A DNA stretch of 64,000 bases, from UHGV virus genome UHGV-0036853. The stretch is one strand, 5' to 3'. The stretch's first letter is position 1; every line of letters starts with the position of its first letter. This DNA is from a virus. This document shows, one piece after another, positions 45,001 through 51,000 of this stretch. The position numbers were made by a program.

Positions 45001-48000
45001 GTTTACGAGAATTGGCTCTCCATCATCGTTATAGCGTACATAAGCGTCGTCCCCTCGTTCTGCAACAGGGATGTTTTTACCTGAAAGGAGAGCGACTACT
45101 CGTTTTACACTGTCACGGAAGTCCTGAACCTCTTTGATGGAACGTTTTTTAGACATGTCTAATCCTTTGTTATGAAAACAAATTGTTTACTAGTGTGTTT
45201 AATGTAGCACTGCGCGAACAGGGAACTAAGCCATTCGCGCAGGGAGAAGAGGGGTTAACAGATTCTGACGGCTAAAGACCCGGAGCCGGTATTGAGAAGC
45301 GTGAAGCGTTTGTTGTTAAGTTCGAATATAAAGCCAGTTGTGTCATTCACACCAACCTGAATCTGCTCATTCGGTAGATCGGTGAGGATGTCAGCTACAC
45401 ACTCATCAGCTAATTTCTGTACGTGTCCGATCTCAAGAGCGATTAGGCTGGAAATAGTGGTTTTCATTCAATCAATCCATTCTAACTTATACTATGGTAA
45501 GGAATACTACTAAAATTTGTATCAATACTGAATACATCCATATCAGATGCAAGTTAATTTTCTTACCTATTTTGGGCTAGTTTTTCTCCATGCATGGACC
45601 TTTACTCGGTCTTACAAGTGCCTGCCGAAAAAAATGATAATAGCTTTACAACCCTAACCTTTGATGTAATATCGGTAAGCACTTACCAGAGAGAATTAAA
45701 CGCGCAAAGGTTGTAACAATGTCTGACAACAAGATTGAATTTATAGAAAGTCGCTATGCTGCTTTTATCGCAGGGCTGATTGAATCCTCACCTATGAGTC
45801 AGGCCCAAATAGCCAGACTTATTGGTTATAAAAATGCCAACAACCTTTCTTTAATTAAAAGTGGCAAAATTCCTTTGCCTATCGATAAGGTTCGTCCGTT
45901 GGCGCTGGCGCTGGGTATTGAGCCAAGTCGTCTTATGATGATGGTGCTGGAAGAACGCCAACCTGAACTCGCAGCATTTTTATACAAAGAAGGCACCGCT
46001 CCTCTTAACGAGGACGAAAAACAGGTTCTTGCTGCATATAACGAGCGATTCGGTAAAGAGAAAGGCGCATCACAAAAGGTTGTTGAGGCCATAAAGTCTC
46101 TATGAAAAATTTACACGAATAAGCTCTGTTGATAGACGATCTCCCTTGAATTTGTGGTCAATTTCGTCTAAATCCGGTTGCTCTACGATTGATGCGATGT
46201 ACGTCGAGAAACTTTCTAAGGCGTCTCGCATCTCGTCCATATAATCGTGCCGGTCGTAGACCCGATCTATCCCCTCAAGACTGTGGTTCATGATTTTGCG
46301 TGATACCTCCTGGCTTATGCCTAATGCTGGGAAGTAACTACGCGCAGTACGGCGCAAATCTCGGGGTGTAAATGGCTCAAGCTCCATCAGTTCTGGTCTT
46401 TCCAGAATACGACGTAATGCCTGGGCTATTGCCACTTTGGACATAGGAAGGTCTTTCCCGATTTTTTTATTCGAAGGCACGAGCCACTGGCTGTCTTTAC
46501 CGTATTCGAACAACTCTTCAATGCATGTGCGCATTAATGTGCTTAAAGGCAGCGAATGCTCACGTGCTGACTTGTTTCTCTTGCCTTGATTCCAAACCCC
46601 ACGCTTAAGATTGAACTCACTTTTTTTAGCCCGCAGTACTTCGTCAGGTCGTCTTGCTGATACAAGACACAGCCTGGCCGCCCATTTTGTACCAGCGCAC
46701 ACATTGAAGTAGTCCCATATATTCCAGAACACCCATACCTCTGCGTCGGTCAGCTTCCGCTCGCGAGGTGTGGGCTTTGCGCCACCGGCAACTTTGTTTA
46801 GTGACATATCGTTTAACGGTGACACGTCTATCATCCCCTGGAAGGCGCACCAGCTAAGGAACTGCTTCATCAGAGAGAAAACGCGGCGGCCCATAACAAT
46901 TTTGCCATCCAGTATTAGTGGGTTGACCAGTTGGTTCACCATGAACCTATTAATGTCACTTACTTTTACATCGGCAATGTGCGGCAAAACATGTATCAAA
47001 ATACAATGAACAGCGATCTCTGGCCGACGTCTGGTTATCAGCAGAGATAAGCGAGTGAATAACATGAATGCGTCCGAGAATCTCATATCATTGCTAACCT
47101 GCGAGATCATAACGGCCTGCATTTGAGATGCTCTTTCGAGATACTCAATCGCCTCTTTTGAGGTGTTCTCCGCAGCGCGTGCTCTGTCAAAGCTATTTTT
47201 CATATGACAATCACCGAGTTACGCCGATTCACTGTATAAGTAAACAGTATATTAGGCATAGATTCTTATAGGATCAAGAGTAAAAGTAACTCATTTTCAC
47301 TAATGATTCCATACATAGTAGGTATGGAATCATTTAGACGTTGTTTTTTGAATTTTAAGGGAAACAGGAGTGAGTTTGGTGGGAATAAAAAAACGGCTCC
47401 TGTGAGCCGTTAAAATCAGAGGGTGCTGACGTATGCAGCCAGTTCTGTGTATCCGCCAATCGGCTGGCCATCGATCAGCACCTGGGGGATAGTCTCTACC
47501 GGTTTACCAACAATTTCACTTAGTTTTTCCTTGTCGATACCGGCAGTGGTGATGTCGATGTACTCATAATCACCGTAGCCATGTCCCTTTAGTTGCTTCG
47601 CCAGCTCGACTGCACGTTTGCAGTATGAGCAGTTATCTCGTCCGTAGATAGTGATCGTCATAACCTAACAAATACCTTTATAAATATTGATTCGAACATA
47701 TCAGACTATACTACAAACAGATTTTTTTGATAAGTATGTAGTAACTTATTGATTGACTGGTAAACAATTGAAGTGATTATGACAATAGATTACAGTAAGG
47801 ATTGCCTTGAAATGTACATTTTATAGAGGTTTTAATGATTGGTAAGTTGTCTGATTCTTTGATTGAAAATAAATACAACGAATTTAGAGAAGAAATATCT
47901 TTACTTTTTGACTATTTAAATCAGATAAATGATACAACAAAGAAAAATATAAAACGTCTTCTAAAAGAAGTGGAGTATGCACAGAATCCAGATACTATTA

Positions 48001-51000
48001 TTAATATTAATGAAACTATTAAGATTAAGTGTGGCACAACGTTAGCTCGCCATTTATGTTCAAACCCATATACAGGTTCAACATTAGAGATAGGTAACAG
48101 CGCCATTGATTTAGAAGAAAAGATAAGATTGTGTAATGTTTTGAAGAATAAACAATATCAGTGGGTTATTACTGAAGCCTATGAGTTACTGGAAGACTAT
48201 ATTGAGGCAATATATGTCTATACTGTATGTGTTCGAAATGATTTCTGGTCCTCAAGTAATTTTGGTAAGGTTGAAGATGATGACATTGGGAAAGGGGAAG
48301 TTTATTACAAATTATTAAAAGCAAAAAGTAACCCATCGAAAAAAATAATTAAAATTTTCAGAAATAAAATACCTGGCTTCAAAGAGATAGAAATAAACAA
48401 CAAGATTGGTAAAAACTATCGCTTTAACATCAAGCTAATTGAACTACTAAGACATACAATAGTACACAATAGTGGACGATTCAATGATACAGAAAAATTT
48501 ATAAATAAGGTTTTAGATGAATCTGAAATAAACGGTAAGAAAAGAGTTATTGGAGAAAGAGCTGTTAGAAGTTACATTGCTAAAGTGCAAGAAGATGATA
48601 TTGTAATGCTCTTAGAAAGACCATCTGAAATTTTTGGTTCTTTTGGTGGTTATTTTAACAGAGCAAAATTTTTACTAAGTGATATTTTAGAATACTCACT
48701 AATCATTAAAGAAGAACTAAAATCATATCTAGGCAATCATTAACAAAAAAAGGGGCCGAAGCCCCTTTGAATTTTGCGCTGAAAAAAGTGTTGCTAGGAT
48801 GTTAGCAAGCTATGGTTAAGAACGTCTGCCGTAATTGTCTATCACAGCGTTGAGCGGTCTGGTTTATGTTAGCGGAGTCTTAATCTGGGTGATTAAAAGG
48901 CCAAACCGCTCAACGCTGTGTCTGGCGGAGAGTAATGGAATCGAACCATCATCGCTTGCGCAATGGGACGGTTTTCAAGACCGCTTGAGCACCATGCTCC
49001 CTACTCTCCGGCCGTTGTGGTGGCCGGTACTGAATCTCCGGCATACGGTGCAGCCAATTAGGACTACGGACGATCACCGCTCGCGAAAGGGAAGATTTGC
49101 GGCCGCATTTCCCTAACATCCAAGAAAGCTATCGCATCAGTCTGCGAATCCACCACAACGGAAAGAGCATTCACGTCTCGCGTGCCACCACGAATGGCAA
49201 CTCAGAGAGTCGAACTCTGAAAATGCTCTTACCTGTTGTGTGCTGTGTCACTCCCTCCGCTATTACCTGGCTTTGCCTCGACCTTTTAGGTTGCGTCCGA
49301 TGATAAACAGGGCTGTCGGAAATTTGTCTGTGACACAGCGATAAGAGAACTCGATGCATTTAAGCCAAGCCCCATATGGGAAGTTCTCTTATCTGTTGTG
49401 CGCTCCGTTTCGTGGAGCTAACGGCGGGTGAACAGGCCGCACCAGGTTGGACATATTTCAGCGTTATGCTGTTGCAAGAGAGCCAAATTGTGATGGTCGG
49501 TGCTGAACTCCGACACAGGGTTGTAGCAAGCCCCGCAAAGCGCGCACTACTGTAGTTGCGGCACATCAGCCTGTGCATTCACCACAATGTTGAGAACACT
49601 GGTTGTCACGCTGCAACGCAACATTTATTCATAGATTGGGATATGACCCCGTTACGCCAATGTTCTCAATATTATGTTGGTGCCGGTTAACGGACTTGAA
49701 CCGCTGACCATTCGCTTACAAAGCGACTGCTCTACCAACTGAGCTAAACCGGCAATTTGGTGGGGAGTGATGGAGTCGAACCACCCGAGTCGCAATGACA
49801 GTAGATTTACAGTCTACCCCGCTACCCCTACGGACTAACTCCCCTAAATTGGCGATGGTGGGTGGATTCGAACCACCGACCAGTTGGTTAACAGCCAACT
49901 GCTCTACCGCTGAGCTACACCATCAATTCGGCACTGCCAGTATTTATTACTCAACAGTGCCAATCGCGACGGTTTAGTTTCTGCCAGGAAACGCACCGCT
50001 ACTTGCACTTTTCGTTAGTGCCAGACGCTTTCGACTTCGCTCAATAGTAGAAGGCAAACTCTTTAAGTAGATGATGTTTCTGAGGACAGCACCTACTTTG
50101 TAATTTATACAATGTGATGTATGGAATCATTTGTTGTGAAAACAGGCACCAATGGCAACAGTGGTTAAACCTACACAACTATTCTGTCTTCACAACGTTG
50201 AGGCCACTACTCCGATTGAATGTTTGCCCAACATGTTACATATCAACGCTCGCCGGTATCTCTGTGAATAGAACCTTAGAATTGATAAAAATGTAATGGC
50301 CTCAACGTTGTGTGCTGGCTAACCATACCAGCCGGGCTACGTCGCCGCTTTTTAACCCAGTATAAACGACATAATTGAACAAAATGACGTAACAGAATGG
50401 GCGGTCAGTGGCTAAGAATCCGGGAGTCATATGGAGTTGAAAATATACCGACCGCCCATTCTGTTACTTCATCGGAGGGAACACTCATGTTCCCTCCTGC
50501 GTTCTGCAATCACACTCGCTCAGTGTGTCCCATTTCGGTAACGAGGCTGGAAACTGACCTCGCTGGTGTTTGGCTTATTAGGCTACTGCCAGATAGACTT
50601 CTTCGTTTGCACTTGTATTTAAGTTCAAACAGTCGCGTCTCAACGAAAACAAAGTCATCTTATACACAAAAGATAAGTAAGTAAATACTTATCAATATGT
50701 TTTTATTCGGTTGTGACTTTTTTGATCAAGGCCACTCTAGGACTAGGTGTTCTTGTAATGGTGGCAGTGAATCGTTTCGCTTGGATAGTAATGGTTTCGT
50801 TCTCCTTAAGTTGCCCGTAGCGAGTTTCCACCAGGGTGCCAAGACGCCACAGACCATCATCGATACGTTTATGACTAGCAAATTTAATCAGCAACAGTTT
50901 TACGACTAACTGACCTACGTAAAAGGCGAATGCGACTCCGGCCGCTAAGAAATAGGTGGCCAACCACCAGTCCCAAGAAGTTAAATTGCTCATTTTCTAA

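Follow-up and report, generated by a model that had tools for sequence, protein, structure and literature searches.

Introduction

The minimal HEPN toxins of the HEPN-MNT systems, such as HI0074, HepT (7ae2/8xdj) and SO_3166 (5yep), are 130–140 aa long and paired with an MNT antitoxin. The protein studied here is encoded by a single ORF in the window, which is the whole 64-kb stretch of DNA analysed. It differs from them in having 302 aa, a 50-residue N-terminal helix, two β-hairpins, a 60-residue insert and no partner gene. They show no detectable sequence similarity to it in profile searches against PDB sequences.

HepS ('HEPN Solo'), an abortive-infection nuclease of the HEPN kind from the Salmonella prophage Gifsy-1, has no partner; it is triggered by the siphophage J tail tip and targets tRNA-Thr, Ile and Ser (PMC13043305). 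It is a precedent for a solo HEPN defence. Homologues of HepS (STM14_3211) are shorter than 250 aa and have R100-H105 as their motif, whereas the window protein carries its motif at 206–211. Size and motif position set it apart from the HepS family, and the PDB-sequence profile search returned no HEPN entry.

The solo Abi proteins AbiD and AbiF are AT-rich and some 340–370 aa long. Their family (Pfam Abi_2) has a HEPN core, like the predicted fold of the window protein. As to Ribo L-PSP-HEPN, one relative of the window protein (P0086) is automatically named RiboL-PSP-HEPN by UniProt. The HMMs of Abi_2 (PF07751) and HEPN_RiboL-PSP (PF18735) match neither the window protein nor P0086 at E≤10, and neither is among the 25 most-matched families for the 136 members. 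The UniProt label is irreproducible with the current Pfam HMMs and serves as a lead only. Unlike Ribo L-PSP-HEPN, the window family has no L-PSP fusion and no recurrent ParB neighbour in 43 loci.

RnlA and LsoA (RNase LS) are HEPN toxins active in anti-phage defence and share the local R-H-x3-H, which is R318-H-S-L-F-H323 in RnlA and experimentally essential there. The upstream acidic E258 of RnlA positions the His, and the window protein also has an upstream acidic residue. RnlA differs from the window protein by its TBP-like N-terminal domains and by a dedicated antitoxin, RnlB, and the profile comparison with it is not significant (probability 0.08%).

Esos from a Vibrio cholerae integron cassette is an anti-phage protein with a HEPN-like domain only and arrests growth on infection (bioRxiv 10.1101/2024.07.02.601686). 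It is likewise single-gene, cassette-borne and HEPN-like, and one member of the window family also resides in a Vibrio integron cassette. Compared by description, Esos probably belongs to another HEPN family, since no V. cholerae protein is found among the relatives of the window family.

At the RNA level, 5′-3′ fold-back pairing locks the hok toxin mRNA. A long 5′-3′ duplex is similarly predicted to close the window transcript and bury the start codon of its presumably toxic ORF. It differs from hok in having no antisense RNA partner, in encoding a putative 302-aa enzyme rather than a small membrane peptide, and in being confined to one allele lineage.

Results

The ORF and its composition

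The plus-strand ORF of 302 aa that an earlier note had picked out at 47835-48743 is real and starts with ATG (Table 1). That note had judged it by eye to be AT-rich and Lys/Asn/Ile-rich, and the computed values agree. Its GC content is 0.290 versus 0.456 for the window, its GC3 is 0.228 versus 0.40–0.56 in the neighbouring genes, and K+N+I make up 31.1% of its product's residues versus 15–22% in all 11 neighbouring proteins. It is the only long plus-strand gene of the 15-kb minus-strand block, as claimed, but a second gene of 128 aa shares the strand. The integrase and glutaredoxin genes lie on one side of it and four minus-strand tRNAs on the other.

Table 1. Coordinates of the features at and around the 302-aa ORF in the window.
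Feature	Position	Strand	Basis
128-aa gene; HTH regulator by annotation in relatives	45719-46105	+	
Integrase	46100-47203	-	
Glutaredoxin gene	47416-47661	-	
Variable cargo module, 1,084 bp, promoter region and ORF; missing from most sibling phage-plasmids	47662..48745	+	homology breakpoints
Candidate sigma-70 promoter TTGACT-16-GATTAT, in module	47753..47780	+	consensus scan, 9/12 matches
Predicted 5′ arm of fold-back: 5′ UTR, start codon, codons 1-7	47799..47855	+	pairs with 48686-48739
Shine-Dalgarno-like AGAGG, 5 nt 5′ of ATG	47825..47829	+	read from sequence
ORF, 302 aa, HEPN-like protein (PHROG 35492)	47835..48743	+	ATG start
Conserved core helix, residues 93-133; N105, Y108, W110, Y116, invariant E117 (48183-48185), Y127; candidate HEPN helix-2	48111..48233	+	model helix and conservation
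Variable helical insert, residues 134-194, between core helices; with N-terminal helix (residues 1-68) candidate specificity/sensor surface	48234..48416	+	lowest identity
Conserved helix and loop, residues 195-218; R206-H207-T-I-V-H211 (48450-48467), G214; candidate HEPN helix-3 with catalytic R-x4-H	48417..48488	+	model and conservation
Predicted 3′ arm of fold-back: last 18 codons	48686..48739	+	pairs with 47799-47855
GC-rich hairpin terminator GGGGCcgaaGCCCC, usable in both directions; backbone, outside module	48749..48768	.	strong T-run on minus strand
tRNA-Ser	48923-49009	-	
tRNA-Thr/Tyr/Asn	49678-49924	-	

A variable module in a phage-plasmid hotspot

The host element is an SSU5-like phage-plasmid of E. 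coli. Similarity to its gene-less siblings ends at 47650-47661 and restarts at 48746, delimiting a module of the promoter region and the ORF. The gene is present in 30 of the 245 matching E. coli genomes and plasmid-borne every time; the other genomes match only 48746-48800. The promoter in the module is a putative one, since such sigma-70 sites are not above chance in the region (4 found versus 6.8 expected). The gene was also thought to have its own terminator. The hairpin is there, but the strand with its strong T-run is the minus one, and its region is 97–98% identical in plasmids without the ORF, so that it belongs to the conserved backbone and not to the module.

The slot is a hotspot in such elements. 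Sibling plasmids carry in it either a nuclease that matches PDC-M68A (6e-25), SduA (Shedu) and CBASS effectors or a putAbiC (AbiC-like) protein. Plasmids with 98–100% identity in the flanking proteins share only 59% in the 302-aa protein itself, and alleles have been swapped in near-identical backbones. Between E. coli and Klebsiella, the protein is 37–41% identical versus 82–85% for the ligase and integrase. At the sequence level, this contrast between the gene and its flanks reads as an arms-race signature. The GC content is lower in the gene than in the flanks at 45 of 46 loci.

The recombinase- and tRNA-proximal location is as described before but is incidental as an argument for a defence role. 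The gene-less plasmids keep the same tRNAs, and any tRNA occurs in the examined flanks of only 3 of the 35 loci outside phage-plasmids, so the tRNA adjacency is incidental. A functional tie to these tRNAs, as of an anticodon nuclease with resistant tRNAs, was accordingly rejected.

An uncatalogued family with three invariant residues

The sole family assignment of the product is PHROG 35492, an uncurated family. Its relatives form about 400 clusters at 50% identity in several phyla. The earlier note could name no family for it, and the 302-aa protein has no match at E≤10 in Pfam, NCBIfam or PADLOC v2.0.0; in PADLOC, whose models cover known and candidate defence systems, the 136 members give no consistent match either. 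The family escaped the Pfam-, NCBIfam- and PADLOC-based searches of this analysis because no model there covers it. A PHROG 'anti-restriction nuclease' match (E 0.001; no stretch passing alone) was judged noise. Some members are truncated or frameshifted, and the gene is dispensable.

E117, R206 and H211 are the only invariant positions. R206 and H211 are unchanged in 136 sequences of 21–60% identity, of which 132 have H at position 207 and the other 4 have N, and R-x4-H is in essentially all full-length representatives. In the window protein, the motif lies in LRHTIVHNSGRF (residues 205–216). The R-x4-H noticed earlier is hence present, but the bare motif is worthless as evidence, because 17% of shuffles of the 302-aa protein contain it (44% contain R-x4-6-H) and additional chance copies occur in 36 of 135 relatives. 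What carries the signal is that the motif is invariant and where it is placed, not its mere presence.

A predicted HEPN-like fold

AlphaFold on a shallow 6-sequence alignment gave an unusable model (pLDDT 48.9), and a deep alignment was used instead. The HEPN four-helix core, proposed earlier as a test, is predicted by this model as a four-helix up-down bundle like solved HEPN domains. R206-H211 is placed at the C-terminal end of helix 195–212 followed by loop 213–218, as expected for a HEPN motif. Its spacing fits the R-x4-6-H of the superfamily, and the residue right after Arg, which should be polar (N, D or H), is H or N. As in HEPN domains, short and poorly conserved helices separate the two conserved core helices. 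This insert is 46–48% identical between alleles versus 73–79% in the core and is the least conserved part across the family too. E117 is in helix 93–133, with the local pattern E-x3-D versus the usual HEPN helix-2 E-x3-[KR], whose acidic residue lies spatially near the motif in that superfamily.

No significant match to an established HEPN family comes from Pfam, NCBIfam, PADLOC, the PDB-sequence profile search or hhalign. Member-wise scans yield only stray weak matches to PF05168 (1 member, 0.0037) and Csx1/Csm6 (2 members, 0.0033). A Foldseek search, also suggested earlier, finds no match at E<1e-3 in PDB and BFVD. The hhalign comparisons with an ApeA-like protein, RnlA and a 4-sequence RnlA profile are not significant (probability ≤1%).

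In the PDB-sequence profile search, a marginal match to CmlS halogenase (E 0.0022, residues 80–170, the motif lying outside) was judged spurious and one to SNAP-25 noise. The sole hhalign alignment with RnlA, itself non-significant, sets R206/H211 opposite the catalytic R318/H323.

Alternatively, the protein would be no HEPN RNase but another helical bundle, such as a metal-binding hydrolase using H207, H211 and E117 or a non-enzymatic regulator, with a coincidental R-x4-H. This alternative is unlikely.

A solo gene, and a predicted mRNA fold-back in one lineage

No neighbour family recurs across 43 distinct loci, and one homologue is a single-gene Vibrio integron cassette between attC repeats. 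An adjacent co-conserved antitoxin of the HEPN-MNT or RnlAB kind is absent from these loci, the cassette and the window. Searches near the gene detected neither a type III-like RNA antitoxin nor a small ORF as a partner; the window has no tandem-repeat RNA, Rfam ncRNA or small partner ORF.

The window allele is predicted to fold its mRNA back by 41 base pairs, with a ΔG of -38.8 versus -18.5 ± 3.4 in shuffles (z -6). Every pair is in the full-transcript MFE, and the mean pair probability is 0.96. The Shine-Dalgarno-like AGAGG would be within an internal loop of the fold-back. The median z of the family is -0.3 and only the window lineage is below -3, and the fold-back was therefore rejected as a family-wide regulatory element.

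The predicted 5′-3′ duplex of the window allele buries the AUG, which was unexpected.

Could the protein then be a toxin for plasmid addiction or stress dormancy, a HEPN RNase that kills or arrests plasmid-losing cells and is checked by an unrecognised antitoxin or the mRNA fold-back? HEPN proteins are common in toxin-antitoxin systems, such toxins are often in integron cassettes, a low-copy plasmid-prophage needs stabilising, and the predicted lock over the start codon is hok-like. However, the conserved partner gene and the nearby RNA repeats, ncRNA or small ORF are absent, the other alleles lack the fold-back, and 30 of 245 genomes is poor coverage for a maintenance role. Such a role in addiction or dormancy is distinctly unlikely.

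Relatives in defence contexts

The family resides in defence islands and mobile defence hotspots. PADLOC, applied to 138 neighbours at 35 other loci, gives strong matches to PD-T7-1 (5e-195) and PD-Lambda-1 (4e-181), and also to PD-T7-3, PD-T7-5, MADS, type I and IIG R-M and PARIS/AbiL-like ATPases. At one locus (L011), the family gene is flanked by ApeA and PLD-nuclease genes, and in a P2-like prophage another member fills the accessory gap between gpS and gpV. The Klebsiella plasmid p2 (CP085480) carries an intact member; phage plating rose 10–100-fold upon curing of p2, which the authors of that work credit to an R-M system.

A phage-offensive RNase, which would serve lytic growth or establishment by degrading host RNA, countering host defences or excluding related phage-plasmids, suits a phage-encoded gene adjoining DnaE, ligase, primase and glutaredoxin (replication and nucleotide metabolism) with 14 relatives on viral contigs, but is distinctly unlikely given the many non-phage relatives, which reside in chromosomal defence islands and the integron cassette, the defence-type cargo in the same slot of sibling plasmids, and an opposite-strand, swap-in/swap-out module with its own promoter region, which is of the lysogenic-conversion moron type and not of the core lytic programme.

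Discussion

The earlier interpretation as an undescribed abortive-infection or defence protein is supported, and the protein is still a candidate with no sequence-profile link to known HEPN families. In our best explanation, it would be a solo HEPN-superfamily metal-independent endoribonuclease, carried as 'moron' accessory cargo that has a promoter of its own and serves an abortive-infection-type defence. We give this about an even chance of being right. It draws together what was observed of the gene (its composition, its family with the invariant residues, the solo status, the residence in hotspots and defence islands and the allelic replacement) and a fold and a motif placement that are predicted. 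The RNase activity, dimerisation, trigger and abortive outcome are what we infer from them.

Mechanistically, the solo HEPN protein would be produced in the plasmid-lysogenic state and kept inactive. A cue from an infecting phage would activate it, probably via the fast-evolving N-terminal helix and the insert between helices 2 and 3. Two subunits would then juxtapose their R206-x4-H211 motifs with E117 assisting, and tRNA, mRNA or rRNA would be cut. The cleavage would arrest the cell and abort the infection.

For the E. coli 302-aa allele alone, one may speculate further, as a long shot from the predicted fold-back, on an antitoxin-free HEPN toxin with a safety catch in its own mRNA. Infection-linked RNA processing or unwinding would free its translation, making the transcript a part of the phage sensor. 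If true, a protein-enzyme defence effector would here be locked at the RNA level, in a clinically common phage-plasmid.

Natural allele swaps in identical backbones and the cured Klebsiella plasmid p2 offer ready-made experimental material. The SSU5/pHCM2-like phage-plasmids, which occur commonly in clinical E. coli and Klebsiella, are relevant to phage therapy. If confirmed, our reading would define a defence hotspot in them, from glutaredoxin to the tRNA-Ser terminator.

In summary, sequence comparison and modelling suggest that the 302-aa protein most likely represents a widespread, uncatalogued family of HEPN-type anti-phage cargo. If this is confirmed, a sizeable family would join the single-gene HEPN defences.

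Gene and family

The 302-aa ORF lies on the plus strand at 47835-48743, exactly where the earlier note placed it, with an SD-like AGAGG five bases upstream of the ATG. Its AT-richness, previously judged by eye, is borne out by a GC content of 0.290 against 0.456 for the window and a GC3 of 0.228 against 0.40–0.56 for the neighbours. Likewise, Lys, Asn and Ile make up 31% of its residues, against 15–22% in 11 of 11 neighbouring proteins. It is long as described but not alone in interrupting the minus-strand block, as a 128-aa plus-strand gene does so too. The latter is an HTH regulator or putative repressor by annotation of relatives, although a Pfam search at E<=0.001 gave no match.

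The hairpin that had been taken for the gene's own terminator exists, yet it is the minus strand that bears the strong T-run, and the backbone in which it sits is 97–98% identical in plasmids without the gene. It is a shared bidirectional terminator at the convergent junction.

In line with the earlier note, which could match the protein to no named family, Pfam, NCBIfam and PADLOC gave nothing at E<=10, and PDB sequences no match. The sole match is PHROG 35492, of unknown function, which covers the full length. A word-indexed search recovered only 7 clusters, from E. coli, Klebsiella and Citrobacter replicons the size of phage-plasmids. An exhaustive profile search at E<=1e-3 recovered 399 clusters at 50% identity, of which 104 reached <=1e-30; almost all members are single-domain and 280–310 aa long.

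NCBI labels every member 'hypothetical protein', while UniProt A0A923KM28 is auto-named 'RiboL-PSP-HEPN domain-containing protein', a label not reproduced with current Pfam HMMs. The hosts include Gamma- and Betaproteobacteria, Campylobacterota, Spirochaetes, Bacteroidales, Nitrospira and others, a patchy spread of the kind typical for genes that move horizontally. In some carriers the gene is frameshifted, split or truncated (plasmids CP012114.1, CP110593.1, NZ_CP031803.1 and six similar 111-kb Klebsiella plasmids; proteins P0005 and P0006), with a match in 3 pieces, residues 43–304 only or products of 172–173 aa. The broken copies suggest a costly gene that is occasionally inactivated.

Active site and predicted fold

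Across 136 aligned sequences with 21–60% identity to the focal protein, only E117, R206 and H211 are invariant. N105, Y108, W110, Y116, Y127, W138, E186, N189, H207, V210 and G214 are conserved in at least 90%, and position 207 admits only H (132 sequences) and N (4). The R-x4-H motif noticed earlier is indeed there, in LRHTIVHNSGRF (residues 205–216). However, a bare R-x4-H arises in 17% of shuffles of the protein and extra chance copies occur in 36 of 135 relatives, so its presence alone says little.

A structure model from a shallow alignment was unusable (pLDDT 48.9), and that from a deep alignment reached a pLDDT of 94.3 and a pTM of 0.90. By published definition, a HEPN domain comprises four helices in an up-down bundle, an insert separating helices 2 and 3, and a second conserved acidic residue in helix 2; its R-x4-6-H closes helix 3 and extends into the loop that follows, and the Arg is succeeded by a polar N/D/H (Anantharaman et al. 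2013). The predicted fold has the bundle, the insert, the motif placement and the polar residue. The acidic motif of its candidate helix 2 reads E-x3-D instead of E-x3-[KR]. A bundle protein outside the HEPN superfamily is unlikely. Between alleles, the two core helices are the conserved part (73–79% identity) and the N-terminal helix and the insert 134–194 the most variable (40–48%).

Cargo module and hotspot

The focal region shares 96–98% identity with Escherichia phages CMS-2020a and Cyrano and about 79% with Salmonella phage SSU5, and the neighbouring genes are consistent with an SSU5/pHCM2-like phage-plasmid, namely its replication and accessory arm. The query finds a match in 245 of 5,426 complete E. 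coli genomes, invariably on plasmids; 30 of the 245 carry the gene and the others match window 48746-48800 only. Pairwise alignments break at 47650-47661, the glutaredoxin 5′ end, and at 48746, three bases past the stop. The module as delimited by these alignments is therefore 47662-48745; it comprises the ORF and an intergenic stretch that contains a promoter-like site.

By comparison of its occupants, the slot bounded by glutaredoxin and the tRNA-Ser terminator is a cargo hotspot of SSU5-like phage-plasmids. The N-terminus of the 262-aa occupant in pAVS0575-B matches PDC-M68A (6e-25), Shedu SduA (1e-16) and CBASS endonuclease effectors, and the putative AbiC match in AJ1 plasmid 3 scores 22.1 bits at a cutoff of 22. 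Klebsiella and Citrobacter phage-plasmids carry a divergent allele in the corresponding place, in every case on the strand opposite to that of the adjoining genes. In pECAZ155_2 the flanking proteins are 98–100% identical to those of the window and the family allele 59%; in Klebsiella backbones ligase and integrase are 82–85% and the family protein 37–41% identical.

A second variable slot, the integrase-glutaredoxin gap, is empty in the window. It holds plus-strand hypothetical genes in Cyrano and pM160133_p3 and a YafO-family toxin gene beside a hypothetical gene in a Citrobacter plasmid; none of the second-slot genes tested matched PADLOC or Pfam. In Citrobacter pRHBSTW-00127_3 an arsRDAB arsenic-resistance operon follows the family gene at ~820 bp with a tRNA-Asn between, so the region accepts resistance cargo too. 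A small gene adjoining the integrase of Klebsiella phage pJN2-26 matches the colicin E1 (microcin) immunity protein family (PF03526, 4.6e-06).

Features of the window, the predicted protein and compared loci
Feature	Position	Strand	Remark
DnaE	38018-41536	minus	
CobS-like AAA_5 ATPase and CobT	41717-45156	minus	
128-aa gene	45719-46105	plus	overlaps integrase stop by 6 nt
Tyrosine integrase	46100-47203	minus	
Second variable slot	47204-47415		
Glutaredoxin	47416-47661	minus	
5′ arm	47799-47855	plus	5′ UTR, AUG, codons 1–7
3′ arm	48686-48739	plus	last 18 codons
Hairpin terminator	48749-48768		
Inverted repeat	48843-48920		arms 20 nt, 95% complementary; spacer 38 nt
Four tRNAs	48923-49924	minus	Ser-TGA, Thr-TGT, Tyr-GTA, Asn-GTT
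Inter-tRNA segment	49010-49670		~660 bp, GC ~0.51
ATP-dependent DNA ligase	51514-52836	minus	
Primase	54229-55482	minus	
Long N-terminal helix	residues 2-50		predicted
Beta-hairpin	residues 69-91		predicted
Long helix bearing E117	residues 93-133		predicted
Run of short helices	residues 134-194		predicted
Helix with R206-H211 at C-terminal end, then loop	residues 195-212		predicted
More helices and second hairpin, then long C-terminal helix	276-301 (C-terminal helix)		predicted
Slot occupant, pMTY12368_pLF82 and phage Cyrano			Gp49-family gene only
Slot occupants, pAVS0575-B			PhoH remnant, 262-aa nuclease-like protein, 184-aa unknown
Slot occupants, AJ1 plasmid 3			432-aa putative AbiC-family protein, K-channel protein, IS remnants
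Slots with alternative occupants	L050 1785-3373; L051 3107-3457; L052 322-3483		
Second slot elsewhere	L004 3972-4526; L049 1817-2555; L002 451-1479		
arsRDAB, pRHBSTW-00127_3	L002 5718-8891		
tRNA-Asn, pRHBSTW-00127_3	5090-5164		
Small gene, pJN2-26	L003 854-1207	plus	
V. furnissii homologue, CP051104.1	8001-8912		within L007 1-16912
Undibacterium prophage	L008 8001-11752		

tRNA adjacency

Phage tRNAs can offset anticodon nucleases. HepS, a solo HEPN abortive-infection protein of Salmonella prophage Gifsy-1, cuts tRNA-Thr, Ile and Ser (PMC13043305). For these two reasons a link of the gene to the tRNAs was tested. The gene does adjoin the cluster, but the adjacency is a backbone property: sibling plasmids without the gene carry the same tRNA sets, and a tRNA occurs in the fetched flanks at 3 of 35 non-phage-plasmid loci, 3–4 kb from the gene.

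A GC-rich segment lies between tRNA-Ser and tRNA-Thr, which in Cyrano and pMTY12368_pLF82 are separated by 8 nt; other plasmids share fragments of the segment only, its ORFs are all small (62–72 aa) and it has no Rfam match. Just past the tRNA-Ser 3′ end (minus strand), a strong inverted repeat lies in conserved backbone upstream of the GC hairpin terminator, its candidate roles being a processing/terminator structure or a recombination site.

Solo status and defence neighbours

A comparison of 43 distinct loci, drawn from phage-plasmids, 14 viral contigs, 23 genomes and several metagenome contigs, turned up no recurrent neighbour family except among near-identical backbones. In Vibrio furnissii the homologue forms a single-gene integron cassette between attC/VCR repeats. 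Its chromosomal array has at least 15 such repeats (TAACAAA...GCGTTA), and most other cassettes have no Pfam match. The Undibacterium homologue belongs to a P2-like prophage, where it lies in the gpS-gpV accessory gap alongside genes for a Dam-type methyltransferase and a Com zinc-ribbon protein; a gene for a 311-aa unknown protein starts 9 nt downstream of it.

One homologue is flanked by PLD/NgoFVII-type nuclease and ApeA_NTD1 genes, and one adjoins an AAA_15/AAA_21 ATPase gene and lies near a group II intron and an integrase fragment. Among the 138 proteins within 3 genes either side at the 35 non-phage-plasmid loci, PADLOC strongly matched PD-T7-1 (5e-195), PD-Lambda-1 (4e-181), PD-T7-3 (2e-165) and PD-T7-5 (4e-120). 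It also found MADS mad3 in four proteins (best 2e-146), type IIG and type I R-M, and PARIS/AbiL-type ATPases. The family gene has a lower GC content than its flanks in 45 of 46 loci; the count includes a few duplicates of the same element.

The window has no plausible small partner ORF, no tandem-repeat RNA and no Rfam family besides tRNAs. Set beside this, a plasmid-addiction or dormancy toxin is quite improbable.

mRNA fold-back

A repeat scan found collinear inverted repeats connecting both ends of the gene, whose arms are predicted to form 41 base pairs. The duplex has -38.8 kcal/mol; dinucleotide shuffles give -18.5 +/- 3.4, hence z -6.0, and none of 300 reaches the duplex value. Five control genes of the window have z of -0.7 to +1.3. 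When a 989-nt transcript was modelled, the minimum-energy fold contained all 41 pairs, at a mean pair probability of 0.96, the AUG lying within a perfect 14-bp helix and the SD in an internal loop.

The fold-back is restricted to the focal allele lineage, with z of -1.5 to +0.7 in sister alleles and a family median of -0.3 (41 genes). The first seven codons, within the 5′ arm, read MIGKLSD here and MIENPPG in the sister alleles. In a 96.7% allele the arms are identical: none of the 23 differences lies there, which does not depart significantly from the 2.4 expected. The fold-back could serve to lock translation of a toxic ORF, by analogy with hok fold-back inhibition, or be the trace of an inverted duplication.

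Proposed function

The best-supported reading, to which we give about an even chance, is a stand-alone HEPN endoribonuclease that would serve as lysogenic-conversion defence cargo of the phage-plasmid. A phage-offensive RNase is quite improbable. The defence reading builds on the observed residues, predicted fold, solo status, hotspot residence and allelic turnover, from which we infer catalysis, oligomerisation, trigger, RNA target and phenotype.

The protein would work like the partner-less HepS, staying inactive until a cue arrives from an infecting phage. A pair of R-x4-H motifs would then come together, and RNA would be cleaved and the infected cell arrested. E117 may help to place the His, as the counterpart of E258, which positions the His in RnlA, the HEPN toxin of RNase LS.

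Solo HEPN proteins are a known kind of mobile-element-borne defence, as with AbiD/AbiF, AbiJ, ApeA, HepS and Esos, the last from a Vibrio cholerae integron cassette. As far as sequence searches reach, the focal family is outside every curated model queried. A literature search found its accessions and PHROG 35492 in no paper, and no relative was found in V. cholerae.

An intact Klebsiella allele lies at 104791-105702 of the SSU5-like plasmid p2 of Klebsiella Kp1604 (NZ_CP085480.1; CP085480). Curing of p2 raised the plating of three phages 10–100-fold, which its authors credited to an R-M system (PMC8969562). The plasmid is a useful handle on the family.
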